Positions 32,544-48,342 are shown, numbered from the stretch's first letter. The stretch: DNA of 54,808 nt from an uncultured bacterium (GCA_964404605.1 CAYOKT010000006.1:2005-56812), one strand, 5' to 3'. Made by a program: numbers and translations. The notes: generated by a model not told the origin, from the letters alone.

Positions 32544-33827
32544 CTACCACCCCGCCAGCTTCGCGAGCTCCCCGGCCAGGCGGTCGGCGACGCCGGTGTG
32601 CCGGGCGACGTACCCGCCTGCGAGCTCCCCCCGCCTCCTGCTCTCCTCCCCCCCGGCGAGGGCGTCATCGAACGCCCGGGCCACCTGCTCCGGCGTCTCG
32701 ATCATCTCCGCGCAGCCGAGGGCGAGCAGGTCCCGCGCCTCGTGGCTGTTGAGGTGGCGCGGCCCGAACAGCACCGGGATGGCGAACACCGCCGGTTCGA
32801 GTACCGAATGAACTCCCGCGCCGAACCCGCCCCCGACGTAGGCGATCCGCCCGAGGCCGTAGAGCCCCGCGAGGACACCGACCCGGTCGACGACCACGAC
32901 GTTGGGAACATCCGCCCCGTCCTCCACGGCGGCGAGGGTCGCCGTGCGGATTCCCTCCTCCGCGCACTCCTGCTCGATGCCGCGCAACCGCTCCGGGGTC
33001 GGCTCGTGGGGCACGAGGACGAGAACCGCCCCCGGATAGGCGGCGCAGATCCTTCCCCAGGCGGGAAGGAGGCGCTTCTCATCCTCCGGCCAGGTGCTCC
33101 CCGCCACCGCCACCTCCCGCCCGGCGAGACGGTCGGCGAGCGCCCCCTGGTCCTCCCGCCCGGCGAGGGCGCGCTGGCGCACGCGGTCGAAACGGGTGTC
33201 TCCGGCGGAGACGACCCGCACCTCCCCGCCGGCGAGGAAACGGAAACGCCGTGCATCATCCTCCGCCACCGCGTAGATCGCGCTGAGCCTGCCGAGAACC
33301 TCGCGGTTGAAGGGGATCGCCCAGCGGCGCAGGCGGGTGGAATCGGGCCGGAAGTTGCCGTTGATGACCGCCGTGGGAATCCCGCGGTCCGCCGCTTCCC
33401 AGATCAGGTTCGGCCACAGGTCGTGCTTGGCGAAGAGGATGAGCGAAGGCTCGAGAATGTCCAGCAGCCGGCGCACGCGGCGCGGGGAGTCGAAGGGGAG
33501 GTACAGGTGGGCGGCCGCCGCGGTGATCCCCTCCGCCCGCTCGCTGGCGGAAGGCGAATAGTAGCTGAGAATGATGTCCGCCTCGGCGCGCCCGCGCAGC
33601 GCTTCCAGCAGGGGAACCGCTCCCTCCAGCTCCCCGGCGGAGGCGCAGTGGACGAGCACCCGCGGGCGGTCGTCCCGGCAGCGTGACCTCGCCCGCGAGA
33701 GTTCCGCCGCCTCGCGCAGCCTCCCGCGCACCCCCGCCCGCACCTTGCGCGAGAAGGGCATGGCGAGCAACAGGCCCGCCTCCATCGCGGGAACCGCGAA
33801 GAGATTGTACCCCCCGCGCCAACTCAT
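32544..33827 (-). CDS. waaA: 3-deoxy-D-manno-octulosonic acid (Kdo) transferase
   Basis: Trimmed to MSWRGGYNLF at 33827 (ATGA overlap with the upstream gene). WaaA-like pattern: HCASAGE, YLPFD, WPNL. Confidence 0.8.
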   Translation of the reverse strand: MSWRGGYNLFAVPAMEAGLLLAMPFSRKVRAGVRGRLREAAELSRARSRCRDDRPRVLVHCASAGELEGAVPLLEALRGRAEADIILSYYSPSASERAEGITAAAAHLYLPFDSPRRVRRLLDILEPSLILFAKHDLWPNLIWEAADRGIPTAVINGNFRPDSTRLRRWAIPFNREVLGRLSAIYAVAEDDARRFRFLAGGEVRVVSAGDTRFDRVRQRALAGREDQGALADRLAGREVAVAGSTWPEDEKRLLPAWGRICAAYPGAVLVLVPHEPTPERLRGIEQECAEEGIRTATLAAVEDGADVPNVVVVDRVGVLAGLYGLGRIAYVGGGFGAGVHSVLEPAVFAIPVLFGPRHLNSHEARDLLALGCAEMIETPEQVARAFDDALAGGEESRRRGELAGGYVARHTGVADRLAGELAKLAGW

Positions 33828-34912
33828 GGCTCCGGACTCCCGCCGCGATCCCGTGTCGCTTCCGCCACGGCCTGCCCCAGGGTCGCCTCCACCTGGTCCG
33901 GTGTCAGCCTTTTCATGCACCGGTGGTGTCCCAGCGGGCAGCGCTCCCCGCCGTGGGCGCTGCAGGGACGGCACCAGAGAGGGGCTTCGAGCACCCGGGC
34001 ATTCGGAGCGCGGAAGGGGAAGAAGCCGAATTCGCGCACCGTGGGGCCGAAGAGGGCGACGAGGGGGCGGCCGGACGCCACGGCGAGGTGCATCGGGCCG
34101 GTGTCGCCGCTGACGATGCCCTTGGCGCCGGAGAGCACCGCGGCGGTCATCAGCGGCGGGGTGCGGCCGGTCAGGTCCACCACCTGCCGTCCGTTCGTGC
34201 CGGCGACGGCGGCCACCTCGCGCGGCATGTCGCCGGGTCCGCCGATCACGATCACCGGCCTCTCCCGCCGCAGCAGTCCGACGAGTTCGGCCCAGTACTC
34301 CCCCGGCCAGCGCTTGGTCGCATGCTTCGCGCCCGGGATGATCGCGTAGGGCTTGGTCAGCAGGACCGGCCAGCGCTTCGCCGCCTCCTGCCAGAGTTCC
34401 TCGCCCAGCCGCAGGGTCAACCCGCGATCATCATCCCACACCCCCCAGGAGGAGACGGCTCGAAGGTAGCGCAGGGGTACGGGTTCGAAGCGCCCGAGAC
34501 GAAGTTTCGTCGCGATCAGCACCCCGCGGCGGAACCGGGGAGGGCGGTACACCGCATTCCGTCCCGCCCTGAGCGCCCGGCGGACTTTCGCGCTCCGGGG
34601 CGAGCCCTGCAGGTCGGCGAGGTAATCCCAGGACCCCTCCGCCAGCCGGGAGACATCCCGGGTGAAGGAAGCGCCCCGGCGTCGGATCGCCTCCACCCTG
34701 CCGACGCCCGGCAGCGCCGCGGCCAGCTCGGCGTAGCGCGAGGTCGTGATGAAGACGATTTCCGCCTCGGGGAAGGCGCGGTGCAGGGCACGGCATACCG
34801 GCCCCGCGAGCACGATATCCCCCATGGAGCTAAGGCGCAAAATCCCGATTCGCACAACGCCCTCGTGTCGCTGTTCCCCGCGCTCCCGTTCCCGCCCGGG
34901 AACCCCTCTCAC
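33824..34912 (-). CDS. Glycosyltransferase family 9 (LPS heptosyltransferase-like)
   Basis: Begins RIGILRLSSMGDIVLAGPV and ends with GDTGPMHLAVASGRPLVALFGPT. GTG start overlaps the apbE stop (GTGA). Confidence 0.8.
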   Translation of the reverse strand: MRGVPGRERERGEQRHEGVVRIGILRLSSMGDIVLAGPVCRALHRAFPEAEIVFITTSRYAELAAALPGVGRVEAIRRRGASFTRDVSRLAEGSWDYLADLQGSPRSAKVRRALRAGRNAVYRPPRFRRGVLIATKLRLGRFEPVPLRYLRAVSSWGVWDDDRGLTLRLGEELWQEAAKRWPVLLTKPYAIIPGAKHATKRWPGEYWAELVGLLRRERPVIVIGGPGDMPREVAAVAGTNGRQVVDLTGRTPPLMTAAVLSGAKGIVSGDTGPMHLAVASGRPLVALFGPTVREFGFFPFRAPNARVLEAPLWCRPCSAHGGERCPLGHHRCMKRLTPDQVEATLGQAVAEATRDRGGSPEP

Positions 34913-35937
34913 CGGCGCTCCACACTCGCCGCCCGGTCTTCCATCGCCTGAAAGCCGGGGGTTCTCCGTGCGACCACCTCTCCCTCCCGCTCCACCGCGA
35001 TCAGCGCCTCCACCCCCATCCCGCGCGCGGCGGCGAGCCCCTCTTCGGGCCCGAGGACGAACAGGCCGGTGGCCTGCGCATCCGCCCCGGTGCAGGTCGG
35101 GGCGAACACCGTGGTCGAGATCGAGGCTCTCGCGGGATACCCGGTGGCCGGATCGAAGATATGGTGATACCGCACCCCGCCGGCCTCGAAATATCGCTCA
35201 TAATCACCCGAGGTGGCGACCGCTCCGCTGTCGAGAGCGATGATCGTCAGGTTCTCGTCCAGTTTCCGGGGGTGGCGCACGGCGATCCGCCACGGGGTGC
35301 CGTCCCGCTTCCGGCCGAACACCCGCAGGTCGCCCCCCGCCCAGACCATCCCGGCGCTGACACCGTTCTCCCGGAGGACTTCACAGGCGCGGTCCACGGC
35401 GTACCCCTTGGCGATTCCGCCGAGCTCCAGCGCCGCCCCCTCCGGGTCGAGCCGCGCCCGGCCCGAGTCCGGCACGGTGAACCGCGTGGCCCGGACGATC
35501 GCCAGCACGCTGTCGATCTCCCGTTGGGACGGGACGCGCTCCCCGGGGGTGTTGATGCCCCACAGGTTCACCAGCGGCCCGAGGTCGGGGCGGAACGCGC
35601 CCCGTGTCCCGGCGGAGATCCGGTACCCCTCCTCGATCAGGCCGATCAGCTCCCCGCCCACCGGAAAGGAGCCGCGGCCGGAGATGTCGTTCAACCGGGC
35701 GAGTTCACCCCACTTCGCCAGCGACTCGATGCGCTCGATCTCCGCGAAGGCCCGTTCGATCGCCCTCTCCCCCTCCCGCCGCGAGAAACCCGGCGCGAGG
35801 TCCTCCACCGTGATCCGCACCTCGGTGCCCAGGCTGTACCGGGTGGACTCCAGGGGCGCGCGGCTGCACCCGGCGGCGAACAGAAGCGGAGCGATCAGGA
35901 GACCCGGGACCCACTTCGGCAATGCGGGGTGCTTCAT
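34909..35937 (-). CDS. apbE: FAD:protein FMN transferase ApbE (lipoprotein)
   Basis: Trimmed to MKHPALPKWVPGLLIAPLLFAAGCS (lipobox). ApbE motifs GGIAKGYA and TSGDYERYF. Confidence 0.85.
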   Translation of the reverse strand: MKHPALPKWVPGLLIAPLLFAAGCSRAPLESTRYSLGTEVRITVEDLAPGFSRREGERAIERAFAEIERIESLAKWGELARLNDISGRGSFPVGGELIGLIEEGYRISAGTRGAFRPDLGPLVNLWGINTPGERVPSQREIDSVLAIVRATRFTVPDSGRARLDPEGAALELGGIAKGYAVDRACEVLRENGVSAGMVWAGGDLRVFGRKRDGTPWRIAVRHPRKLDENLTIIALDSGAVATSGDYERYFEAGGVRYHHIFDPATGYPARASISTTVFAPTCTGADAQATGLFVLGPEEGLAAARGMGVEALIAVEREGEVVARRTPGFQAMEDRAASVERR

Positions 35938-36968
35938 CGGCGGCGCTCCGCGGCGAAGCGGGCGAAGAGGGAGAGCTGGTCGCGCCACGGGCTGGGCGGA
36001 AGCGCCTCGAGCGCCCGCTGCGCCTTGGCGGCGTAGTCGGCGGCGACCCGGCGCGCGTACTCGATGCCGCCGGACTCGCGGATCAGGGCCGTCACCTCCC
36101 GCAGGTCCACACTCCTGCCGCGCTTGGAGGCCTTCTTCGAGGCTTTCAACCGGCGCAGCACCTGGCGCCTCTTCCCGGCGCCCAGTTGTTCGAGGGTGTG
36201 AATCAGGGGCAGCGTGAGCTTCGCCTGCCCGAGGTCGAGGCCCGTCGGCTTGCCGAGCTTCCTCCCGCCGTCGCCGAGGTCCAGCAGGTCGTCGCGGATC
36301 TGGAACGCGATCCCGACCAGTTCGCCGTACTCGCGCAGCGGGGCGCGCATCTCCTCGGGCGCGCCGAGGGAGAGCGGCCCCATCTGGCAGGCGGCCCCGA
36401 TCAGGGAGGCGGTCTTGTCCGAAACGAGCTGGAAATAGGCCGGCTTGTCGAGGTCGAGGGTGCGGGCGTGGATCGCCTCGTTCAACTCCCCCTTGGCGAG
36501 GCGGACGGCGCAGTCGCTGAACAGGTCGAGCACCTCGAGGCTGCGCTGCGCGAGCATCCCCTCGAGGGAGCGGGCGAGCATGTAGTCCCCGAAGAGCACC
36601 GCCACCTTGTTGTTGAAGACCACGTTCAGGGTGGGGCGGCCGCGGCGCTCATCGGCCCGGTCGACCACGTCATCGTGCACCAGGGTCGCCGTGTGCAGCA
36701 TCTCGACGACCAGCGCGGCGGTGAGCGTCCGCTCGCTGAGCTCCCCCTCCGCCCCGGCCGCGCGGGCCGAGAGGAGGGTCAGCGCGGGCCGCAACTCCTT
36801 GCCCCGGCTCCTCACCAGGTAGGCCGAAACCTGGTCGATGAAAAAGGAGCCGCTGCGGAGGAAACGGCGGTAATGGCGGCGGAAGGCCCGCAGGTCATCC
36901 CGCACGGGAGCGAGGATGTCCCTCAAGCGCACTTCGCCAACGGCCTTCGTTTGAACCACCGTGCTCAA
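35934..36968 (-). CDS. Polyprenyl diphosphate synthase (IspB-like, long-chain)
   Basis: Both Asp-rich motifs are present: LVHDDVVD and FQIRDDLLD. TTG start overlaps the smpB stop (TTGA). Confidence 0.85.
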   Translation of the reverse strand: MSTVVQTKAVGEVRLRDILAPVRDDLRAFRRHYRRFLRSGSFFIDQVSAYLVRSRGKELRPALTLLSARAAGAEGELSERTLTAALVVEMLHTATLVHDDVVDRADERRGRPTLNVVFNNKVAVLFGDYMLARSLEGMLAQRSLEVLDLFSDCAVRLAKGELNEAIHARTLDLDKPAYFQLVSDKTASLIGAACQMGPLSLGAPEEMRAPLREYGELVGIAFQIRDDLLDLGDGGRKLGKPTGLDLGQAKLTLPLIHTLEQLGAGKRRQVLRRLKASKKASKRGRSVDLREVTALIRESGGIEYARRVAADYAAKAQRALEALPPSPWRDQLSLFARFAAERRR

Positions 36969-37435
36969 CGATTCCAGCGCTCTGTCTCCCTCTTCGCGCG
37001 GGCGAGGTCGCGTTTCGCCTCGCGCGCGGCGATCGCCGCACGCTTGTCATACTGCCGCTTGCCGCGGGCGAGACCGATCTCCACCTTCGCATACCCCCGG
37101 TCGTTGAAGTAAACCCGGAGCGGGATCACGGTCAACCCCTTCTCCTGCACCTTGCGGGCGAGACGGTTGATTTCGCGGCGGTGAAGGAGCAGTTTCTTCG
37201 GCCGGTGGGGATGCTGTTCGGCGTAGCCCCGCCGCTCGTAGGAGGCGATCGCCATGCCGACCAGCACCGCGGCACCCTCGTCGAAGTTGACATGGGCCTC
37301 CCGCAGGCTGACCCGCCCCTCGCGGACGGACTTCACCTCCGGCCCGGTGAGCACCAGCCCCGCCTCGAGGCGCTCCAGGATCTCGTAGTCGTGGAACGCC
37401 TTGCGATTCTTGATTTCCGGCGAAGCATACGGCAT
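36965..37435 (-). CDS. smpB: SsrA-binding protein
   Basis: 156 aa with the canonical N-terminus KNRKAFHDYEILERLEAGLVLTGPEVKS and a basic C-terminal tail. Confidence 0.93.
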   Translation of the reverse strand: MPYASPEIKNRKAFHDYEILERLEAGLVLTGPEVKSVREGRVSLREAHVNFDEGAAVLVGMAIASYERRGYAEQHPHRPKKLLLHRREINRLARKVQEKGLTVIPLRVYFNDRGYAKVEIGLARGKRQYDKRAAIAAREAKRDLARAKRETERWNR

Positions 37436-39925: not shown

Positions 39926-41347
39926 TTATCTCCCACCCAGCGCCAGCTCCGGCGCGGGCTCCGGCGGGGTTTCGGGCACGATCCCCCGGAAGATGTCGTA
40001 GCGGTTGAAAACATCCTCGACGTAGCGCAACACCTGGCCGCCGCGGACATAGCCGTACTCCGCCTTCCGGTAATATTCGGGCTGTTCCAGCAGGCGCAGC
40101 GCACCCGCGACATCCTCCCACCGCCGGGGATCTCCTCCCCGTTCCCGCGCGAGTTTCCGGGCGTCCGCCACGTGTCCGATGCCGCAGTTGTAGGCCGCCA
40201 GCGCCAGTCTCAGGCGGTCATCGCCATCGACATCGCCGTACATCCCGTACAACTTGCGGAGATAGCGGGCGCCTCCGAGGATGTTCTGGGCGGGGTCGTA
40301 GAGGTTCTTGACGCCCAGCATCTCCGCCGTGCGCGGCATGAGCTGCATCAACCCCACCGCCCCGGCCCACGAGGTCTTGTCCGGCAGGAAGCGGGACTCG
40401 TGGTACGCTTGCGCCGCCAGCAGCCGCCAGTCGAAATCGGTGACCGCCGCCGCCGCGCGGAACTCCTCATCGTAGCGGCTGAGCTTCCCCTCGCGGTAGA
40501 GCGCGAGGTGGGCCGTGCGGTGGCGGAGGAAGCGCGCCGTGTTCTCGAAGTACCGCTTCCGCAGGATGTTGAAGTAGGCCGAACGGTAATAGCGGCCGAG
40601 GAAATCGTTCAACGCCGCCAGCAGTTCGGGGGAGTTCGGCCTCACCGCCCAGGCGATCGGCTGGGGGTCGGTGATCGCCACCCCGATCTCGAGGCCGGGG
40701 TAGAACTGCTGCTCCAGCCGGGCGATGGTGTTGTCCACCACGGTGAGCGGTGCTTCGCCCTTGGCGACCAGGACCACGGGATCATCCCGCTCCTCCAGCT
40801 CGTTGTGGTACTCGATCTCCACCCGGATTCCCCGGCGCCGCAGCTCGCGCAGCCGCTCCTCGTAGGAAGAGCCCCGCCGGACGAGAACCCTCCTGCCGTC
40901 CAGCTCCTCGATGGTCTGCGGCGGGGGGGAGTCGCTGGTGCCGACCGTAACCTGGCGCACCTCGAGATACCGCCGGGTGAAGGAGAGCTGATCGCGCCGG
41001 TCGGGGGTCACGGTCATCATCGCCGCGATCACATCCCCCTCACCGTGGTAGAGGGCCGGGATCATGTCGGACCACTCCGGCGGCATCACGATCTCGAGCA
41101 CCAGGCCCTGCTCCTCGGCGAACTTGCTGATCAGCTCGTAATCGAAGCCGCGACGGGTGCCGCGGTAGAGGTAGTAGGTCAGGGGGTGGTTGCGGGTGAT
41201 CACCCGCAGGGTGTCGCTGGTCTTGATTTGGGCGAGGTCACGCTCCACCGGGCGGCCCAGGCGGCCAGCCGGTCCACAACCCACGGCGAGTCCAAGAAGC
41301 AGAGCCGCCGGGAGAGCGAGCCATCGTCCCCGCCAGGTCGAGCTCAT
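39926..41347 (-). CDS. mltF: Membrane-bound lytic murein transglycosylase F-like (SBP_bac_3 + SLT domains), lipoprotein
   Basis: Trimmed to MSSTWRGRWLALPAALLLGLAVGCG. N-terminal solute-binding-like domain and a C-terminal SLT catalytic region (AYHESRF, AVGLMQLMP). Confidence 0.8.
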   Translation of the reverse strand: MSSTWRGRWLALPAALLLGLAVGCGPAGRLGRPVERDLAQIKTSDTLRVITRNHPLTYYLYRGTRRGFDYELISKFAEEQGLVLEIVMPPEWSDMIPALYHGEGDVIAAMMTVTPDRRDQLSFTRRYLEVRQVTVGTSDSPPPQTIEELDGRRVLVRRGSSYEERLRELRRRGIRVEIEYHNELEERDDPVVLVAKGEAPLTVVDNTIARLEQQFYPGLEIGVAITDPQPIAWAVRPNSPELLAALNDFLGRYYRSAYFNILRKRYFENTARFLRHRTAHLALYREGKLSRYDEEFRAAAAVTDFDWRLLAAQAYHESRFLPDKTSWAGAVGLMQLMPRTAEMLGVKNLYDPAQNILGGARYLRKLYGMYGDVDGDDRLRLALAAYNCGIGHVADARKLARERGGDPRRWEDVAGALRLLEQPEYYRKAEYGYVRGGQVLRYVEDVFNRYDIFRGIVPETPPEPAPELALGGR

Positions 41348-41485
41348 GCCGCAACGTAGGCGCGGCCCCGCGCTCCTGTCAAGGCGAAACGCCCCGCGAA
41401 TCCCATCCGCCGCCGGCCGCGTCCCGCGCCGCGGGTCCGCGCGGCCGGCCGCCCGTGAAACACTCACTGTTCTTCTTCCCGGAGA

Positions 41486-43153
41486 TCAGCGTGCCGGCCC
41501 CCCGCGGGCGCGGCTTTCGATCTTCCGGTTCAACTCCTCCAGCAGGTCCTCCCGTTCCCGGTCTCCGTGGAAAAAGGGGCTCTCGAGGAGTTCCACCCGC
41601 GCCGCTTCCCAACGCCCGAGGGCGGCGAGGATGCGGGCGCGGTGGAGGGGGAGCTTGAAGAAGGAAGGGGCGAGAGCGGCGAGGGTGTCGGACTGCGCCA
41701 GGGCGTCCTCCAGCCCGCGGCGGCGGGCGGGCGACCCCTCCGGTTCGGCGAACGCCTCACGGTACCGGGCCCACACCAGCAGCGCCCGCGCCTCCAGGCC
41801 TTCCGGCCAGAGAGAGAGACTGCGCTGGAGGGCACGGGCATCCGAGGGGGCCCAGTAGCGGGCGGGATCCCTGCCCCGCTTGAGAGCAGCGTCGGCGGCG
41901 GCGCGGCGCACCTGCAGCGGCAGAGCCGCCAGCGCGACCACCGCGAGGAGAGCCCAGAACGCCCGCCGCGGACCGGGGCGCGGCGTCTTCCCGCCCTTGA
42001 ACGCGGGCGACAGCGAGAGGGCCGCCGCGAAGGCCAGCGCCGCGGGGAGCATCCCCTCCCGTGACGGCGCCAGCGAGACCGCCCCCTGCACGACGGCGGC
42101 GGAGAGGCTCATCCAGGCCACAAACCCCCGGTCCATGCCCGATCCGCGGGCCAGTGCACGCCATGCGGCGGCGAGCGCCGCCGCGGCGAAAAGAAGCAGT
42201 CCCAGCGCGGCGAACAGTCCGCCTTCGACGGCCGCCTGCAGGGGTTGGAGGTGCAGGTGGTCCAGCGGGCCCAGGGCGGTCAAGTCGGCATAGTGTGGAT
42301 GATGCGGCGAACGCGCCGCCGGAAAGAGGAATCGCACCTGTCCGGGGCCGTGCCCGGTGAGCGGCGCCTCCCGGAACAGGCGGACCCCGGCGGCGAGATT
42401 GGCCGTCCGGTCCACCCAGGCCACCTCCCGGCGGAGGCTTAGGAAGAGGAACATCCCGGCGGCGAGCAGCAGGGAGACGGCCAGCACCGCCGGGCGCCAG
42501 CGGCGCAGCGTTCCCCGCGCCCGCGCCCAGAAGACCCCCATCGCCCCGGCGAGCAGCCCGAGCATCGCCCCGGCGGAACGGGTCCACGGCAGCAGCAGCA
42601 ACACCGCCACCGTGACGAAGAAGCCGAGGTGACGCCACCAGCGCCGCTCGTCCACCGCCGTGGCCAGCGCCCACGGCCAGAGCACGACCAGGTGGTAAGC
42701 GTACACGTTGGGGTGGCCGAGAGTGCCCCTGATCCCGTCACCGCCGGGGAAGAAGAGGAGATCGGCACCCCCCGCGAGAGTATGGATGAGCAGGGCGACT
42801 GTCACCCCCCGGCGGAGGATGCGGCGGCCATCCTCATCGCGCAGCACCGCGATCCCGGCGAGAAGGAAGATCAGGGCGGCCCACTTCCCGGCGAGGTCCA
42901 GCGCCGCCGTGAGCGGGCGCTCGACCGTGAAAAGACCCGCAAGCAACCCGAGGGCGAGCAGGACCAGGCCCGCCGCGGCCGTCCTGCCGACTCCCCCTCC
43001 TTGCGGCGGCCGGACCGCCTGCAGCACCGCGAGGAGCGCCGCGCCCACCCCCAGCAGGGCGAGGGCGGCATGGTACGGGTGCAGGAAACCCGGCGGCCGG
43101 GGCAGCGCCGTCGCCACCAGCAGGGCGGCGAACAGGCAGGCGGATCGTTTCAT
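41486..43153 (-). CDS. O-antigen ligase (Wzy_C)-like polytopic membrane protein with a C-terminal helical-repeat tail
   Basis: Trimmed to MKRSACLFAALLV. About 10-12 TM segments. Periplasmic-loop motifs GHPNVYA and TRSAG, and a soluble Ala/Arg/Leu-rich C-terminal ~140 aa. Confidence 0.6.
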   Translation of the reverse strand: MKRSACLFAALLVATALPRPPGFLHPYHAALALLGVGAALLAVLQAVRPPQGGGVGRTAAAGLVLLALGLLAGLFTVERPLTAALDLAGKWAALIFLLAGIAVLRDEDGRRILRRGVTVALLIHTLAGGADLLFFPGGDGIRGTLGHPNVYAYHLVVLWPWALATAVDERRWWRHLGFFVTVAVLLLLPWTRSAGAMLGLLAGAMGVFWARARGTLRRWRPAVLAVSLLLAAGMFLFLSLRREVAWVDRTANLAAGVRLFREAPLTGHGPGQVRFLFPAARSPHHPHYADLTALGPLDHLHLQPLQAAVEGGLFAALGLLLFAAAALAAAWRALARGSGMDRGFVAWMSLSAAVVQGAVSLAPSREGMLPAALAFAAALSLSPAFKGGKTPRPGPRRAFWALLAVVALAALPLQVRRAAADAALKRGRDPARYWAPSDARALQRSLSLWPEGLEARALLVWARYREAFAEPEGSPARRRGLEDALAQSDTLAALAPSFFKLPLHRARILAALGRWEAARVELLESPFFHGDREREDLLEELNRKIESRARGGPAR

Positions 43154-43281
43154 GCCGTAAAGATACAATTCCCCCGCGGCCCGTACCCCGGTGGAGGCGG
43201 GCTCTTCACGATTCACACCCGTTCCCGGCGGAAACCCGTCCGGCCGCCTGCGTCGGCCGGCCCGGTTTTGTACCTTCCGTC

Positions 43282-44169
43282 GTGACACCCTTCACCCCAC
43301 ATCCCGCGCCCCGGGCGAAGCTTTCCCGGAGGGGGGGATTCCCCCTCCCCGCCGTCCTGCTCGCCCTGCTGCTTCTCCTCCTGCCCGGGCGTGGATGGGC
43401 CCTCTTCTCAACCCGTCCCGAGGGAGCGCGGGCGGGGGGCACGGGCTGCTCGCTGGCGGCCGATCCCCTCGACCCCGCTTCGCGCGCGGTGAACCCCGCC
43501 GCCGCGGCCCTGAGGCGGAGCTGGGCGTTCACCGCCGCCTTCTCCCGGCCGTTCGAACTCGCCGAGCTGGACCGGTTCCGCTTCGACGCCGCCGGGCCGC
43601 TGGGCCGGTTCGTGCTCGGGGCCTGGGCCGGCGGCCAGGGACGGACGCTCTACACCGAGCGCGAGACCGGGCTGAGCCTGTCCCGCCGGCTCGACCCGCG
43701 GATCGCCCTCGGCGCGGGGTTGGCCTACCGCCGGGCGGAGATCAACGGGTACGGAGCCGAGGGCGGGTTCGGCGCGGACCTCGGCGCGTTGCTGACCGGC
43801 GGACGGTGGTCGCTCGGCGGGTGCGTGCGCAACGTGTACGCTTCGCCCTACGACCGCTTCGGCGACCGTCCCGCCCCCCGCGCCCTGCTCGCCCTGCAGG
43901 TGAACCCCACCGACAAGCTCAGCGTTTTCACCGAGGTGGAGTGGGAGCGGCATTACGCTCCCGCCCTCCGGCTCGGCGTCGAAGGCGAGGTCTACCCCGG
44001 GCTGCGGCTTCGCGCCGGGTACGACGGCGGCACCGACCGGCTGCACCTCGGCATCGGCCTGCGCGTGGGAGCACTGGGCGTGGACGGCGGCTACGACCAG
44101 CACCCCTGGCTCGGCTGGACGCGCGCCTTCGGCCTGACCTGGTGGAACGATGCCCCGAAGCGCCCGTAG
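43282..44169 (+). CDS. Predicted outer-membrane beta-barrel, PorV/PorQ-like (tentative)
   Basis: GTG start and a signal peptide (LPAVLLALLLLLLPGRGWA). The N-terminal GARAGGTGCSLAADPLDPASRAVNPAAA resembles the G-x-G...NPA motif of PorV/PorQ-type barrels. Family call is from memory only. Confidence 0.45.
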   Translation: MTPFTPHPAPRAKLSRRGGFPLPAVLLALLLLLLPGRGWALFSTRPEGARAGGTGCSLAADPLDPASRAVNPAAAALRRSWAFTAAFSRPFELAELDRFRFDAAGPLGRFVLGAWAGGQGRTLYTERETGLSLSRRLDPRIALGAGLAYRRAEINGYGAEGGFGADLGALLTGGRWSLGGCVRNVYASPYDRFGDRPAPRALLALQVNPTDKLSVFTEVEWERHYAPALRLGVEGEVYPGLRLRAGYDGGTDRLHLGIGLRVGALGVDGGYDQHPWLGWTRAFGLTWWNDAPKRP

Positions 44170-45937
44170 AGGCCCGCCTCGCCGGTCGGGCGCGTGGCCT
44201 CGTCTCGTGCTCCCGGCCCTCCTCGCGCTGACAACCGTTACTCCCCCGGCGGCGGCGCAAACCGTCCCGGACAGCCTGCTGACCCGGCTCGAGGACGGCA
44301 CCGAGGAGGTAGGCGCCGCCTGGACCGACCTGCTGGAGAGCGGAGTCGTCCCGCAACTCCCCGCTCCCCCGCCATCCGCCCCGACGGGCGAAATGCCGCC
44401 GGGCTTTCCCCGGGGGTACCCCCGCGCGACCGGTCTCACCCTGCGGCGGCAGGACATCACGGCCGACCGGCCCGGTGCGCACCTGCTTCGGTTCGATCTC
44501 ACCCAGGACCGCTGGGCCGCCGGCGCCCTTCTCCAGCGTGACGCCGGGGAGACCGACCCGGCGGACCTGGGCCGGGCCTGGGGGGCGGTGCGCGGGGCGC
44601 GCTGGACCCTGCTGGCGGGCGACATCGCGGTGGACGCGGGACTGGGCTGGACCATCGCCACCTCCCCCTCGTGGCCGGCGGGCGAAGACGCCGCCGCCCC
44701 GCTCCGCCGCCCGCCCGAAGGGGTCCACCCCAACCGCTCAAGCGAGGAGGGGTGGGGCTGGCGCGGGGGCGGCCTGCACTGGGACTATTCCGAGGGGTAC
44801 GGACTCGACCTCTGGGCCGGGACGGCCTCCTTCGACGCCCGGGCCGTGAGCGGCGGCCTGCTGCCCTACGCCGGGCAGGGGGATCACACCGGAGAGAGGA
44901 GCGAGACGAAGAACGCGCTGCGCGAGGACCACTGGGGAGTGCAGCTCCGGCGCAGCCGCGAGGAGGGGGGGTTCGGGCTGATCCGCTGGGAGAGTGTCTG
45001 GAGCGAGCACCTTGCGGATTCCCCATCGCCCGCGCGGTTCCGGGGCGGGGGCGACCGGCCGGGGGTGACCGGACTCTGGCTGCGCCGGGACCTCGCCCCC
45101 TCCGGGACCCTCTTCCTGGAGCTGGCGCAGCAGGACCGGAACGCCCTCGGCGGAACGGCGCTGATCGCCCTGCGCTCGCAGAGCGCCCTCGCCACCCTCG
45201 CCCTCTACCGCGCCACCGTGGGCTTCCAGCCGCTGCACGCCCGGCCGATGCTCCCCTTCGGCGATGACCCCGCCGGGCGGCTCGGCGGCGTGCTCGCCCT
45301 GGAGGGGAGGATTCCCGGCGCCGAGGCGTGGCGCGCCGGCGGCAGCGCCGCCTTCGAGGGGCGGGAGCCGACTCCCGCCGGCACCGGCGCCGAAACGCGC
45401 TGGGGCGGGCGGCTCTACGGCCGGGGACCCATCGCGCGAAACTGGCGGCTGGACGTCCGCTTCCGGTTGCGCCGCACGCGAACGGGAACGACAGACGAAG
45501 CCCTCGACTGGAGCCACTCCCTGCGCGGAGTGCTGCGCCGGAAGGTGGGCGGCGCGCGCTTCGGCCTGCGCGGGGAACGGACCTGGGTGAGACACGGATG
45601 GGGCAACCTGGTCGGCGGGGAGATCCGCCGTGAAATCCGCCGGTCTTTGGGATTTTCGGGTTCCGCGACCTATCTTTTCCCCTCGGGTTCGGGAGCCGCC
45701 CTGACCGTGATCGAACCGACCGTGCCGGGGCTGTTCCCGGTCCGCCGTCTCGGCGGGGAACGGCTGCGGGCCGCCGGGCTGGTCACCTGGCGACCGGCCG
45801 GGGGACTCCGCGTGCACCTTCTCTTCTCCGCGGAGCGGCGCCTCGACACCGGGCCGGACGGCGCGACAGACGACAAGGGGACCCTGGACACCACCCTGAC
45901 CGCCGGCGTGCAGTGGTTCGAGAGGAGAACGCGTTGA
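44150..45937 (+). CDS. Secreted protein of unknown function, beta-barrel-like
   Basis: Signal peptide (WPRLVLPALLALTTVTPPAAAQ). 595 aa, rich in Gly/Arg/Trp with alternating strands. Start overlaps the upstream gene by 20 nt. Confidence 0.55.
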   Translation: MPRSARRGPPRRSGAWPRLVLPALLALTTVTPPAAAQTVPDSLLTRLEDGTEEVGAAWTDLLESGVVPQLPAPPPSAPTGEMPPGFPRGYPRATGLTLRRQDITADRPGAHLLRFDLTQDRWAAGALLQRDAGETDPADLGRAWGAVRGARWTLLAGDIAVDAGLGWTIATSPSWPAGEDAAAPLRRPPEGVHPNRSSEEGWGWRGGGLHWDYSEGYGLDLWAGTASFDARAVSGGLLPYAGQGDHTGERSETKNALREDHWGVQLRRSREEGGFGLIRWESVWSEHLADSPSPARFRGGGDRPGVTGLWLRRDLAPSGTLFLELAQQDRNALGGTALIALRSQSALATLALYRATVGFQPLHARPMLPFGDDPAGRLGGVLALEGRIPGAEAWRAGGSAAFEGREPTPAGTGAETRWGGRLYGRGPIARNWRLDVRFRLRRTRTGTTDEALDWSHSLRGVLRRKVGGARFGLRGERTWVRHGWGNLVGGEIRREIRRSLGFSGSATYLFPSGSGAALTVIEPTVPGLFPVRRLGGERLRAAGLVTWRPAGGLRVHLLFSAERRLDTGPDGATDDKGTLDTTLTAGVQWFERRTR

Positions 45938-47037
45938 GTTCATCAAGAGGGAAGCGGCGGAGCAGCTCCCCGAAGCCGCGCGGAGGAGAGGGCCGCCCCG
46001 CGCCCGGAAAGGCCGCCGGGCGAGGGGATGCACCCCACCCCGGCACGGCGGCGAAGCGGGAGGACATCCTCGCCGGCCACCCGGTCGCCGAGGCGCTCCC
46101 GCCGGAGGTGCTGCCCGCGGCCGCGCCCCCCTCCGTACCGCTCTCCCTGCCGATCCGCACCGTCCGCTGCCCCGTTTGCGAATACGCCTTCGAGCAGAAC
46201 TGCGGCGGACTGGAGGAGGAGGTCGTCTGCCCGCACTGCGGCTGCGGCTTCCCCTACACCGACGGCTACCTGAACCATTACAAGGCGTACATCGAGGCGT
46301 TCATCGACCCCGTGCATCCGATTCCCCTCGCGCCGGGGTACTCCACCGGCGGCGAGGTGCAGATGCCTCCCAACGACCTGCTGCTGGTGGACTTCGGGGT
46401 GACCTACCGGCGGGAGCCGGAGGTGTTCTTCCTCCTGCCGGACGGCAACGCCGGGCGCGAACTGCTGGTGCGGAACCTCGTCGTGCTTCCGCTGTCGGTC
46501 AGCAACCGCACCCTCATCCTCTTCTCCCATGTTCTCGACCGTAAGGCGTCGGCCCGGGCCGTCCCCGTCCGCTGGATGGCGATCGGTGAGACCGGCGAGT
46601 GGGAAAAACCGCTGTGGCTGAACTACCTTCAGAACGCCGCGGACCTGGTTCGCACGGGCGAGGATGTCGCGGCGCTGGTCATGCTGATGGTGGTGCTCGA
46701 CTTCTTCTACGATGCGATGCTCGAGCGGCTGGGCATCACCTACGAGACCATCCGCCGCCGGGGAAGACGCCCGGGGATGAACGAGAAGCGGGCGAAACTG
46801 AAGCTGCTGGAGGAACATCTCGGGGCCTGGCCGGGCGGGATCGATGATCTCCTGCGCGACTTGACGGACTACCGGAACCGCATCGTGCACCGTGTCGTGA
46901 AACGCCCGGATGCGCCCGAGTTCACCGGCCGCCGCGCCTTCCAGGTGGTGATGCGCGCCCTGACCACCCTGATCAGCATGTACCACCAGGCGCGGCAGGG
47001 AGATGTACGAGTCCCGTCTTCCACGAAACGGAAGTGA
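45934..47037 (+). CDS. Cytoplasmic zinc-ribbon protein with a C-terminal HEPN-like helical domain (RNxxxH)
   Basis: Likely TTG start at 45934 (TTGA overlap with the upstream stop, GAGAGGAGAA SD 4 nt upstream); the track start 45913 is also possible. No signal peptide. Basic disordered N-terminus, CPVC-x16-CPHC, then an all-helical C-terminus with YRNRIVH. Confidence 0.6.
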   Translation: MSSSRGKRRSSSPKPRGGEGRPAPGKAAGRGDAPHPGTAAKREDILAGHPVAEALPPEVLPAAAPPSVPLSLPIRTVRCPVCEYAFEQNCGGLEEEVVCPHCGCGFPYTDGYLNHYKAYIEAFIDPVHPIPLAPGYSTGGEVQMPPNDLLLVDFGVTYRREPEVFFLLPDGNAGRELLVRNLVVLPLSVSNRTLILFSHVLDRKASARAVPVRWMAIGETGEWEKPLWLNYLQNAADLVRTGEDVAALVMLMVVLDFFYDAMLERLGITYETIRRRGRRPGMNEKRAKLKLLEEHLGAWPGGIDDLLRDLTDYRNRIVHRVVKRPDAPEFTGRRAFQVVMRALTTLISMYHQARQGDVRVPSSTKRK

Positions 47038-47062: not shown

Positions 47063-48055
47063 ATGGACCTGTCGACCGTGAAACCCATGTATGTCCGCAT
47101 GTCGTTGAGAATCGTGCCGGCGGCGCTGGCGCTGCTCTTTCTGCTCACGGCGGCGGGGAAATTGCACGCCGCGGATGGTGAGATCGACTGGAGCCAGGTG
47201 AAACAGCGCCTCGTCAGCGACGGGGTCGATGAGCAGCTCGTGGACTCCCTCTTCAGCGACCCCCGTCTCGAGGTTGTCCCCAAGCTGATGCGGTTGAACA
47301 TGAAACAGCCGGACGCCACGCCGAGTTATAAGCGTTTCCTCGAGAAGGAGAGCATCATCGCCACCACGCGGTTCATGAAGAAACACCGGAAACGTATCGA
47401 AAGAGCCCTCGCCGGGACCAGGGTCGACCCGGCGATCGTCGTCGCCATCCTCCAGGTGGAATCCAGCCTGGGCCAGACCACGGGCGACTACCCGCTGATG
47501 AACGTCTATGCCACCCTGGCCCTGCTCGACAGCGACCAGCGCGACAAGGCGGACCCCAAGCTGTGGGACCACGTTCTCTCGGACCTGCCGCGCGAGGAGC
47601 GGGCCGCGGCCCGGCGGACCGTGCGTGAACGGGCGCGCCGCAAGGGACGCTGGGCCTACCGCCAGTTGAAAGCCCTCTGCCTGATGTCCGACAAGGGGTT
47701 CGACCCCTTCGAGGCCAGGGGCTCCTGGGCCGGCGCCTACGGCCTGCCCCAGTTCCTCCCCACCTCCCTCGAGGCGTACGGACGGGACGGGAACCAGGAT
47801 GGCCGGATCGACCTGGCGTCGATCGAGGACGCCGCCGCTTCCATCGCCAACTACCTGGAGGTACACCAGTACCGCAGCGACCAACCCGCCAAGCGGCGCA
47901 AGGCGGTGTGGAACTACAACCACAGCGACGAATACGTGGACTGCGTCCTTAACCTCGCCGCCCGTGTCGCCGCCGAGAGCGGCATGGGGGCCGAGTCCTG
48001 GGGAAAGTCCCAGGCGGTGAAGGAACAGGAAGCCGGGCGGGACACGGGGGAATGA
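47063..48055 (+). CDS. Lytic murein transglycosylase (MltB/SLT_2 family)
   Basis: Signal/anchor LRIVPAALALLFLLTAAG, catalytic region VAILQVESSLG, and later WAGAYGLPQFLPTS. The start is ambiguous among the ATGs at 47063, 47087 and 47099. Confidence 0.8.
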   Translation: MDLSTVKPMYVRMSLRIVPAALALLFLLTAAGKLHAADGEIDWSQVKQRLVSDGVDEQLVDSLFSDPRLEVVPKLMRLNMKQPDATPSYKRFLEKESIIATTRFMKKHRKRIERALAGTRVDPAIVVAILQVESSLGQTTGDYPLMNVYATLALLDSDQRDKADPKLWDHVLSDLPREERAAARRTVRERARRKGRWAYRQLKALCLMSDKGFDPFEARGSWAGAYGLPQFLPTSLEAYGRDGNQDGRIDLASIEDAAASIANYLEVHQYRSDQPAKRRKAVWNYNHSDEYVDCVLNLAARVAAESGMGAESWGKSQAVKEQEAGRDTGE

Positions 48056-48197: not shown

Positions 48198-48226
48198 TTG
48201 ACTTTCTTGGGGAGCCCCTCTATCTT
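48198..48226 (+). promoter_or_regulatory. Sigma70-like promoter for tRNA-Glu
   Basis: TTGACT-17 nt-TATCTT, about 43 nt upstream of the tRNA 5' end. Confidence 0.45.
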
Positions 48227-48268: not shown

Positions 48269-48342
48269 GGCGCGTTCGTTCAGCGGTAAGGACGCCGGCC
48301 TCTCACGCCGGAAACACGGGTTCGATTCCCGTACGCGCTACC
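48269..48342 (+). tRNA. tRNA-Glu: tRNA-Glu (anticodon CUC)
   Basis: Hand-folded cloverleaf. Acceptor GGCGCGT/ACGCGCT, D-arm GTT...GAC, anticodon stem CCGGC/GCCGG with loop CTCTCAC, 4-nt variable loop, T-arm ACGGG-TTCGATT-CCCGT, discriminator A then CC. Position 1:72 would be a G-U pair. Confidence 0.85.

Follow-up and report, generated by a model that had tools for sequence, protein, structure and literature searches.

A HEPN-domain putative RNase encoded in a conserved envelope and cell-wall gene cluster of an uncultured bacterium

Introduction

HEPN domains with RNase activity act independently of metal ions and usually as dimers, and many HEPN domains are non-catalytic. Proteins of the PorV/PorQ family bind the C-terminal domains of type IX secretion system (T9SS) cargo or the SprA/Sov translocon, and PorV docks on the SprA barrel. 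A literature search found no description of a HEPN protein, or of the barrel pair considered here, as encoded with mltB. In RAZR (PD-T7-4), a ring-activated zinc-finger RNase (PMC13017515), an N-terminal zinc-binding domain precedes a HEPN domain of RNase type. In Riemerella anatipestifer, the HhH-domain protein RA0C_RS02645 is required for natural transformation (PMC8459023).

Here, three overlapping genes were analyzed in a 54,808-nucleotide stretch of DNA from an uncultured bacterium (GCA_964404605.1 CAYOKT010000006.1:2005-56812), called the window below; coordinates are counted from its first nucleotide. Our preferred reading, to which we give a probability of about 0.55, is that of an operon for envelope and cell wall, inherited vertically and with an embedded, uncharacterised gene for a HEPN putative RNase, not a system made up of barrels plus a HEPN protein. 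The host would be an uncultured lineage of the FCB group and the operon a housekeeping one, serving envelope and peptidoglycan.

Results

Architecture of the locus

Three overlapping open reading frames on the plus strand were confirmed by ORF calling. Gene 1 (43282..44169) encodes a predicted secreted small β-barrel of 295 aa, gene 2 (44150..45937) a predicted secreted large β-barrel of 595 aa belonging to an unnamed family, and gene 3 (45934..47037), with a TTG start, a predicted cytoplasmic zinc-ribbon/H-lectin-like/HEPN protein of 367 aa. Direct reading of the N-termini revealed a basic and then hydrophobic, signal-peptide-like segment in the products of genes 1 and 2 and none in that of gene 3. 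Genes 1 and 2 overlap by 20 nt (44150..44169), and a TTGA at 45934..45937 was read as the overlap between genes 2 and 3. A purine-rich GAGAGGAG (45920..45927) is located 6 nt upstream of the gene 3 TTG. An overlap of exactly 4 nt is no more than plausible, because an alternative GTG start at 45913 would yield a product of 374 aa. The cluster is closed by an MltB-type lytic transglycosylase gene on the plus strand (47063..48055; SLT_2, E = 2e-46). Its longest ORF starts at 47003, and the in-frame ATG at 47063, which opens a signal-peptide-like segment, fits the spacing of 26 nt given in the initial annotation, gene 3 ending at 47037. The open reading frames and overlaps proposed there were likewise all found in place.

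Overlaps of 4 nt between unrelated genes are frequent within the window (e.g., 36965..36968), so that an overlap alone is weak evidence for a functional link. The arrangement gene 1-gene 2-gene 3-mltB is more than chance, because this order recurs in loci of the same family and in other families.

The two barrel proteins

Gene 1 gave a partial match to NF033709 (23.7 bits, E = 3.1e-5), below the curated NCBIfam cut-off of 90, and is missing from the 19 PorV_fam matches of the genome. A profile of 16 gene 1 orthologues was compared by hhalign with eight bona fide PorV/PorQ paralogues, all above the cut-off and encoded in the same genome, and these aligned over 244 columns (99.2%, E = 1.8e-19). 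Based on this profile comparison, gene 1 is assigned to the PorV/PorQ (FadL-like) superfamily as a divergent, full-length remote homologue, and the earlier label PorV-like holds at superfamily level. The host genome encodes T9SS cargo and at least nine PorV paralogues that score better than gene 1.

For gene 2, no sequence match was obtained in Pfam, NCBIfam or PDB. Its AlphaFold2 (AF2) model is all-beta (pLDDT 81.8, pTM 0.81), with about 24 long strands between residues ~92 and 592; a signature motif is found near residues 155-205. Foldseek retrieved barrels of 22-26 strands (BtuB, MtrB, FimD) at E values of ~1e-9 to 1e-7 and a TM-score of only ~0.4. The product is therefore predicted with good confidence to be an outer-membrane-type barrel of about 24 strands, as had been suspected, and in the modeled fold it has no specific structural relative. 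A profile built from 17 sequences detected this barrel family in 59/79 genomes of the phylum. In sister families (f5, LCP-89-like and f2), the orthologues start with an N-terminal HHH_3/ComEA-like domain, as in ComEA-type HhH proteins, whereas this domain is absent from the gene 2 protein of the window and from its own family.

The overlap of gene 1 with a much larger barrel gene recalls the PorV-SprA pair. Genes 1 and 2 are read as a tightly coupled outer-membrane pair, and by analogy with PorV docking on SprA their products may cooperate in the outer membrane. However, gene 1 scores far under the PorV/PorQ cut-off while better paralogues exist in the genome, and gene 2, with ~600 aa and ~24 strands, is not SprA-like.

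Domain composition of the gene 3 product

Gene 3 is single-copy in the genome. Its 27 relatives, none of them named, share 43-62% identity. The N-terminus (residues 1-66; 45934..46131, plus strand) is rich in Arg, Gly, Pro and Lys, variable and predicted to be disordered (pLDDT below 50 for residues 6-60), and aligns poorly among relatives except for a short R-x-[KR]-E-like patch. It is followed by a zinc ribbon (CPxC...CPxC; 46168..46239, plus strand), of which Cys 79, 82, 99 and 102 are invariant across 28 sequences. In distant relatives, C79 and C102 are invariant as well, and C99 is nearly so.

The middle part (residues ~135-220; 46336..46593, plus strand) is modeled as a beta-sandwich like the H-type lectin or phage tail-fibre tip fold. 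In the PDB, Foldseek matched it to an R-pyocin fibre (6ct8/6cl5) and Helix pomatia agglutinin (2ce6/4q56) with probabilities of 0.96-1.0 and E values from 4e-3 to 6e-2; for 2ce6 and 4q56, the probability was 0.96-0.97, the TM-score on the target ~0.49 and E 0.06. The BFVD matches comprised entries named 'H-type lectin domain' (E ~1e-2) and gp53-like tail-fibre C-termini. One distant relative matched Pfam H_lectin (PF09458) below threshold (E = 3.7e-4; 21 bits vs. a cut-off of 24). With Foldseek E values above 1e-3 and this single sub-threshold match, the domain is best described as resembling an H-type lectin.

The C-terminal helical domain (residues ~227-358; 46612..47007, plus strand) is assigned to HEPN by hhalign. 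It carries the motif R-N-R-I-V-H (R314, N315, H319; 46873..46890, plus strand), a catalytic-type HEPN Rx4-6H motif with a polar residue after the Arg. These three residues are invariant in 28 close sequences; across 20 sequences down to 15% identity, only five columns stay invariant, R314 and H319 among them. A Foldseek search with the whole-protein model returned 2hsb (probability 0.97, TM-score on target 0.59, E = 0.21) and 1o3u (probability 0.47), both annotated merely as HEPN-domain proteins. Gene 3 itself has no Pfam HEPN match; direct Pfam matches to RiboL-PSP HEPN are sub-threshold and limited to distant relatives. Compared by hhalign with bona fide RiboL-PSP HEPN proteins of its own phylum, the broad gene 3 alignment scored 95.0% (E = 3.9e-8) and the narrow close clade alone 83% (E = 9e-6), and the motifs line up. 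Gene 3 thus resembles RiboL-PSP-type HEPN proteins (PF18735) in its helical domain with R-N-x3-H in the equivalent place, but has a zinc ribbon in its N-terminal part and a lectin-like sandwich in addition. Judged by these alignments, it encodes a HEPN-domain putative RNase, in keeping with the zinc-ribbon/HEPN-like assignment of the initial annotation; the structure prediction and Foldseek searches recommended there supplied the lectin-like and HEPN matches as well as the large barrel of gene 2. The zinc-ribbon/lectin-like/HEPN architecture is undescribed, strongly conserved and present in some lineages only. A point against the preferred reading is that a cytoplasmic RNase amid genes for exported proteins has no evident logic.

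Adjoining cell-wall genes

The MltB-type gene scored 119 bits against TIGR02282, under the cut-off. It shares the SLT_2 domain with MltB-type operons, and in relatives an AmiC-type amidase gene and a glutamate racemase gene come next. mltB lies directly downstream of gene 3 in all examined loci with both genes, outside family f2. On the other side and divergently oriented, a gene for a Wzy_C (O-antigen-ligase-like) membrane protein (41486..43288, minus strand; Wzy_C, E = 4.7e-10) adjoins gene 1, as in three of the fetched same-family loci. Beyond it lies mltF, encoding membrane-bound lytic transglycosylase F (39926..41467, minus strand; NF008112, 375.7 bits vs. a cut-off of 354), which is near the cluster in 7/11 fetched same-family loci. 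Both are considered as context only.

Conservation and distribution across the phylum

The order gene 1-gene 2-gene 3-mltB was found in 11/11 fetched same-family loci and elsewhere too, including family f5 and an LCP-89-labelled MAG. All three genes occur in or beside this arrangement in each of 15 family genomes. Where a same-family genus was sampled more than once (three genera), no sampled genome lacked gene 3. Of 79 phylum genomes, 59 were positive with the gene 2 profile, which covered all nine scored families and six of them fully, and 24 with the gene 3 profile (f1, 15/15; f5, 6/9; f2, 2/4; f3, 0/16; f6, 0/24). The three genes do not form an obligate unit: gene 2 is found in 59/79 genomes but gene 3 in only 24/79, and at least 35 genomes have genes 1 and 2 without gene 3. 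The co-occurrence survey called for in the initial annotation came out fully positive within the family (15/15) but not phylum-wide, which goes part of the way to refuting a three-gene system by the standard that the annotation itself had set. That gene 3 is scattered among the families of the phylum would also be consistent with an accessory gene.

Loci without gene 3 have gene 1-gene 2-mltB directly (L045, L047, L048), gene 2-mltB (L052, L053) or a receiver-domain gene followed by mltB-amiC-murI after genes 1 and 2, as in gene 1-gene 2-receiver-mltB-Amidase_3-glutamate racemase-FolC (L042-L044). In sister families, a stand-alone receiver-domain gene separates genes 2 and 3 and shares a 4-nt overlap with gene 3. 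In the complete genome G021, gene 3 is followed by genes for a PfkB kinase and an Amidase_3, with neither gene 1 nor gene 2 nearby; a distant PorV-like/HhH-barrel pair lies 2.1 Mb away (L022/L039 vs. L055), ahead of a gene whose product has a T9SS sorting domain. Whether or not genes 1 and 2 are close by, gene 3 is always followed immediately by a cell-wall gene set; a peptidoglycan hydrolase gene, rather than the barrel pair, is the neighbour that it keeps throughout. In most other families, a DUF4835/PorD-like gene (64-71 bits vs. a cut-off of 170) lies divergently upstream; it is absent from the locus of the window.

Mean pairwise identity was 0.45 for gene 3, 0.43 for mltB, 0.28 for gene 1 and 0.23 for gene 2, and the pairwise identities of gene 3 follow those of its neighbours (Spearman 0.79-0.86). 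No match to gene 3 was found among 72,556 plasmids and 50,697 phage records. Because it is single-copy, best conserved of the cluster, off plasmids and phages and without a PADLOC match, gene 3 looks vertically inherited and core-gene-like. Stand-alone RiboL-PSP HEPN genes, on the other hand, are patchy in the phylum (bona fide members in 10/79 genomes and never more than 4/24 in families with three or more genomes), whereas gene 3 is fixed in a housekeeping operon.

Relation to defence systems

PADLOC-DB v2 returned nothing for any of the three genes or for mltB at E values up to 1. This agrees with the initial remark that no described system pairs outer-membrane barrels with a HEPN-like protein, and lends nothing to the defence module suggested alongside it. 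Within the gene 3 family, the PADLOC PD-T7-4 model matched 0/20 members and Pfam DUF4145 none. Distant relatives of gene 3 (15-26% identity) are stand-alone genes with the same three-domain layout that give weak PADLOC matches to HEPN-bearing defence models. Two of the five contexts examined look defence-like: in one, the relative is flanked by genes for an SF1 helicase and SIR2_2, and in the other it adjoins a DNA methylase gene. The gene 3 family may have roots in conflict systems because of these two relatives; a defence role for gene 3 itself is unlikely.

Discussion

In the preferred reading, genes 1 and 2 would head a cluster kept across almost the whole phylum, followed by peptidoglycan genes (mltB and, in relatives, an amiC-type amidase gene and murI). 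Only in some families does gene 3 separate gene 2 from mltB, having been either gained there or lost elsewhere. As a regulated RNase, it may use its ribbon and lectin-like domains to sense or bind and HEPN as effector, and both its expression and its function would be linked to cell-wall remodelling and not to the barrels. The uncharacterised envelope operon proposed in the initial annotation as the plainer option thus fits best, with the amendment that gene 3 belongs to it in some families only and keeps a peptidoglycan hydrolase gene as its constant neighbour.

The same annotation had also considered the two barrels and the HEPN protein as one envelope-linked sensing or abortive module, in which outer-membrane damage or entry would be relayed to a cytoplasmic RNase. 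Although order and start/stop overlaps are conserved in 15/15 family genomes and the receiver-domain protein of sister families could be a relay, we hold this to be highly improbable: genes 1 and 2 mostly occur without gene 3, gene 3 stands apart from them in G021, the cluster encodes no inner-membrane component able to carry a signal, and overlaps of unrelated genes are common in the window. That gene 3 alone is an abortive-infection RNase, its ribbon and tail-fibre-like sandwich recognizing a phage structure and HEPN cutting RNA, with barrels and MltB as bystanders in a stable operon, is unlikely. Its zinc-binding domain and HEPN in one polypeptide do parallel RAZR (PMC13017515), the sandwich resembles phage tail-fibre tips, only 24/79 genomes carry it, and its distant relatives stand alone, two of them beside defence-type genes, and weakly match HEPN-bearing defence models. 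Unlike RAZR, however, gene 3 has an extra beta-sandwich of ~90 residues and R-N-x3-H spacing and lacks DUF4145 or PD-T7-4 matches, and instead of standing alone in variable or mobile contexts it occupies one fixed chromosomal locus in 15/15 family genomes. There, housekeeping genes abut or overlap it at either end, no gene of the cluster is better conserved, and it diverges together with its neighbours; plasmids, phages and PADLOC gave no match.

A comparably doubtful proposal makes genes 1 and 2 a T9SS accessory or nucleic-acid channel, a PorV-like shuttle on a large barrel, and gene 3 unrelated operon cargo. It draws on the homology of gene 1 to PorV/PorQ, the T9SS cargo and at least nine PorV paralogues of the genome, the PorD-like gene of most other families, the sorting-domain protein behind the G021 pair and the ComEA-type domain of gene 2 relatives, read as periplasmic and DNA-binding. 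A possible parallel is the Riemerella transformation protein (PMC8459023), which also has an HhH domain. Against this, gene 2 of the window has no HhH domain, the PorD-like matches are under the cut-off and missing here, and the cluster holds no T9SS cargo gene; the proposal overlaps with the preferred reading for genes 1 and 2 and is silent on gene 3. Finally, the C-terminal domain of gene 3 might be a non-catalytic HEPN-like scaffold in a binding or regulatory factor, e.g., for a sugar nucleotide or RNA. Many HEPN domains are of this type, the RNase activity is putative, and 2hsb and 1o3u carry no annotation beyond HEPN. The family-wide invariance of R314 and H319 down to 15% identity, the invariant Asn after the Arg in the close clade and the alignment with the RiboL-PSP motif make this quite improbable.

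A further reading, which we put forward as decidedly speculative, sees gene 3 as a housekeeping sensor RNase in cell-wall homeostasis. The lectin-like domain would bind a sugar-bearing cytoplasmic peptidoglycan metabolite, candidate ligands being an anhydro-muropeptide from MltB-type enzymes or a UDP-sugar precursor. The receiver-domain protein of sister lineages would add phosphorylation control, and HEPN would tune the expression of envelope genes by cleaving specific RNAs. If so, gene 3 would be the first case of a HEPN RNase whose core physiological role lies in cell-wall control and not in conflict.

Organization of the locus

The ORF listing and an SLT_2 match confirmed the initial annotation as far as the layout is concerned: a trio of plus-strand ORFs with overlaps, and an MltB-type gene downstream. 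Gene 1, encoding a PorV-like small barrel of 295 aa (43282..44169), overlaps by 20 nt with gene 2, which encodes a large barrel of 595 aa (44150..45937). Gene 3, encoding a protein with a zinc ribbon and a HEPN-type domain, was listed at 45913..47037 (374 aa as the longest form). A TTGA is located at 45934..45937, with GAGAGGAG 6 nt 5′ of the TTG, and the GTG at 45913 is a second possible start. Some 25 residues N-terminal to the zinc ribbon, relatives of gene 3 share a patch of weak conservation; the window copy keeps this patch, and the start is accordingly placed well 5′ of the conserved core. The ORF that follows, mltB, has an in-frame ATG at 47063 that opens a signal-peptide-like segment, and its product is a lytic transglycosylase of the MltB type (SLT_2, E 2e-46). 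Upstream of gene 1, family searches identified divergent genes for a Wzy_C-like membrane protein and MltF.

GC content of the window is 0.61-0.75. Scans for sigma-70 promoters and intrinsic terminators returned nothing informative within the cluster, and the sole Rfam match was a plus-strand tRNA 3′ of mltB (48269-48340; RF00005, 64 bits). This lone tRNA, with a sigma-70-like promoter match at 48198..48226, sets the cluster apart from a minus-strand, lower-GC TonB-dependent-receptor-like gene beyond it.

Elsewhere in the window, 4-nt start/stop overlaps chain several unrelated minus-strand genes (32544-37435, e.g., 36965..36968). Gene overlap is thus a general habit of this genome and by itself says little; when sequence is scanned, overlapping genes should not be taken here as evidence of one system.

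Distribution and synteny

In the window's family, all three genes were present in 15 of 15 genomes, and the order gene 1-gene 2-gene 3-mltB was found in every locus fetched. The same order was recovered in another family of the phylum (f5), in an LCP-89-labelled MAG and in another marine MAG; in these loci, genes 2 and 3 are separated by a stand-alone receiver-domain gene of 129 aa, which shares a 4-nt overlap with gene 3. A CheY-like receiver-domain gene of 128-129 aa fills the slot 3′ of gene 2 in sister families (in fetched loci, L019:7760-8149 and L020:7475-7864 on the minus strand, L037:6618-7007 and L038:6290-6679 on the plus strand, L042:5375-5761, L043:5588-5974 and L044:5410-5796). 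In loci lacking gene 3 this receiver gene is located 5′ of mltB, and it is not present in the window's family.

The gene 2 profile matched 59 of the 79 phylum genomes surveyed, in all nine families scored, whereas the gene 3 profile matched only 24. Loci lacking gene 3 read gene 1-gene 2-mltB in family f3 and gene 1-gene 2-receiver-mltB-AmiC-type amidase-glutamate racemase-FolC in three f5 genomes, with no gene 3 remnant in either. In family f2, genes for a PfkB-family kinase and the amidase take the place of mltB downstream of gene 3. In the complete genome of one relative (G021), neither gene 1 nor gene 2 is near gene 3. Its distant PorV-like/HhH-barrel pair is located elsewhere (L055:3001-9934), where a PorV-like gene (52 bits, NF033709) and an 874-aa ComEA-type HhH barrel gene adjoin the gene of a BNR-repeat protein of 1094 aa that bears a T9SS sorting domain at its C-terminus.

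From these counts and the separate loci, genes 1 and 2 were concluded to be an old pair spread across the phylum. Gene 3 is more restricted, and what stays constant beside it is the set of cell-wall genes directly downstream. The trio had been proposed to be an envelope-linked sensing or abortive-defence module or, alternatively, an uncharacterised envelope biogenesis operon. The first and more striking proposal, in which the barrels and the HEPN protein form one system, does not hold across the 79 genomes, since genes 1 and 2 occur without gene 3 and gene 3 occurs apart from both. The second fits best. Literature and family searches returned no description of the gene 3 family, its architecture or the barrel pair. 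The locus holds a HEPN superfamily member of undescribed layout and an unnamed outer-membrane protein family, and is not a new kind of system.

Domain structure and relatives of gene 3

Direct searches of gene 3 against Pfam, NCBIfam and PDB sequences gave no usable match, nor did PADLOC, suggested earlier as a check for a known defence system. Twenty-seven unnamed relatives were found at 43-62% identity. When 1.84 billion representatives were scanned in full by HMM, only 16 clusters reached E ≤1e-10, and among prokaryotes, with each species represented by one genome, 17 species were recovered, all MAGs, labelled Ca. Electryonea clarkiae, candidate division LCP-89, Calditrichaeota or just 'bacterium'.

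In the AF2 model (pLDDT 83.4, pTM 0.75), the N-terminal residues 1-66 are disordered and are followed by a zinc ribbon (Cys 79, 82, 99 and 102), a beta-sandwich (residues ~135-220) and a helical domain (residues ~227-358). Whole-model Foldseek against PDB and BFVD returned nothing at E ≤1e-3; domain assignments therefore rest on concordant weaker matches and on hhalign. The sandwich resembles R-pyocin fibre knobs, Helix pomatia agglutinin and phage 'H-type lectin'/gp53-like fibre tips (every Foldseek E >1e-3), and one distant relative has a near-threshold match to Pfam H_lectin; it is provisionally assigned as lectin-like.

For the helical domain, Foldseek indicated likeness to the HEPN proteins 2hsb and 1o3u. 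Distant relatives gave sub-threshold matches to HEPN_RiboL-PSP, HEPN_MAE_28990, HEPN_Apea and HEPN_Swt1 and to HEPN-bearing PADLOC models. Using a profile of 12 bona fide RiboL-PSP HEPN genes from same-phylum genomes, gene 3 matched at 95.0% (E 3.9e-8) when its broad alignment was used and at 83% for the close clade, and the R-N-x3-H motifs of the two line up. Down to 15% identity, five columns of the family are invariant: R314, H319, two cysteines and one tryptophan. The HEPN assignment is well supported by this profile match, the aligned motifs and the invariance of R314 and H319. Gene 3 was rejected as a membrane protein, as the model places the hydrophobic residues ~245-263 in a helix buried within the HEPN bundle, a part predicted with confidence.

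Gene 3 as core gene or conflict gene

To our knowledge, bacterial HEPN RNases are known almost only from conflict systems, i.e., toxin-antitoxin pairs, abortive infection and CRISPR accessories. Gene 3, with its undescribed three-domain HEPN layout, behaves like a core gene: it is single copy, occupies the same locus in every genome of the window's family and is the best conserved in the operon (mean pairwise identity 0.45, against 0.43 for mltB, 0.28 for gene 1 and 0.23 for gene 2). Its pairwise identities correlate with the values for gene 1, gene 2 and mltB (Spearman 0.79-0.86), and no tblastn match was obtained in plasmid or phage collections; on these two grounds gene 3 was rejected as recent foreign DNA. 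Ordinary RiboL-PSP HEPN genes, unlike gene 3, are scattered in the phylum (10 of 79 genomes). These stand-alone genes occur in 10 of 51 genomes of families without gene 3 and in 0 of 28 genomes of the three gene 3 families, an exclusion that may be due to chance, as related genomes are not independent.

We favour, at a probability of roughly 55%, a vertically inherited HEPN protein and putative RNase embedded in an envelope/peptidoglycan operon; apart from this single cytoplasmic protein, whose HEPN site is intact, the operon encodes exported envelope proteins. That gene 3 is instead an abortive-infection gene that became fixed is considered unlikely. The family may nevertheless have roots in conflict systems. 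Distant relatives from metagenomes (15-26% identity) have the same three-domain layout as stand-alone genes; two of five contexts examined look defence-like, one flanked by genes for an SF1 helicase of 1220 aa and a SIR2_2-domain protein (L066:4099-10211) and one beside an N6/N4 DNA methylase (L063:2788-5486). These relatives are possible single-gene defence candidates. The zinc-finger-plus-HEPN layout also recalls the anti-phage system RAZR/PD-T7-4 (PMC13017515). That system differs in having DUF4145, another motif spacing and no middle domain, and its PADLOC model did not match gene 3. Less probable still is a three-part envelope-sensing system of genes 1-3, given the occurrence of its parts at separate loci, and the remaining probability is assigned to other rivals.

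In the operon reading, gene 3 would, in order of rank, be an RNase gated by its N-terminal domains; be co-expressed with mltB and, in relatives, with the receiver-domain protein; and respond to a cell-wall-related ligand rather than to phage. Ranked fourth, genes 1 and 2 might form an outer-membrane complex like PorV on SprA. Across several uncultured FCB-group lineages, a peptidoglycan hydrolase gene always adjoins gene 3, and a HEPN protein with core-gene behaviour in such a position is unusual and testable. If active, it would point either to an RNase of normal physiology, linked to remodelling of the envelope, or to a defence gene become fixed; both outcomes would widen the known roles of HEPN domains.

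The outer-membrane barrel pair

Searches of gene 2 against Pfam, NCBIfam, PADLOC and PDB sequences gave no usable match. Word-indexed homologue searches, with single sequence and alignment, recovered 2 proteins only, probably due to high-GC low-complexity words, and its distribution was obtained by profile searches of whole genomes. The AlphaFold2 model from 17 orthologues is confident (pLDDT 81.8, pTM 0.81); from residue ~92 onward its structure is all-beta and comprises about 24 long strands. Foldseek matched many 22-26-strand barrels (BtuB, MtrB, FimD/PapC; E 1e-9 to 1e-7) at a TM of about 0.4, so that gene 2 is regarded as a large barrel with no specific relative among solved structures. 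LptD, BamA, a TonB-dependent receptor, an usher and MtrB were rejected on this TM and on the lack of a family match and of a plug or POTRA domain. Sister-family orthologues carry an N-terminal HHH_3/ComEA-type domain (E 1e-11 to 1e-15), which is missing from the window gene 2 and from its whole family. The pair, a PorV-like barrel and an about 24-strand barrel, often with a ComEA-like domain, is defined phylum-wide and merits a name.

In most families but the window's, a DUF4835/PorD-like gene, whose T9SS_PorD score of 64-71 bits falls short of the 170-bit cut-off, is located divergently upstream of gene 1 (L042:1887-2747 and L048:900-1754, both minus strand, with equivalents in L037, L038, L045 and L049-L051). 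This neighbour hints at a link of the barrel pair to type IX secretion.

As a single sequence, gene 1 gave a partial, sub-threshold PorV/PorQ match (23.7 bits, NCBIfam cut-off 90), and it was absent among the 19 PorV/PorQ matches listed for its genome. Comparison by hhalign of 16 gene 1 orthologues with 8 bona fide paralogues of this genome that pass the cut-off gave 99.2% (E 1.8e-19, 244 columns), from which gene 1 is a real but divergent PorV/PorQ superfamily member. It is not the organism's PorV. At least nine PorV/PorQ paralogues of the genome score above the NCBIfam cut-off, an unusually large set for 3 Mb that includes a tandem pair on contig C10.
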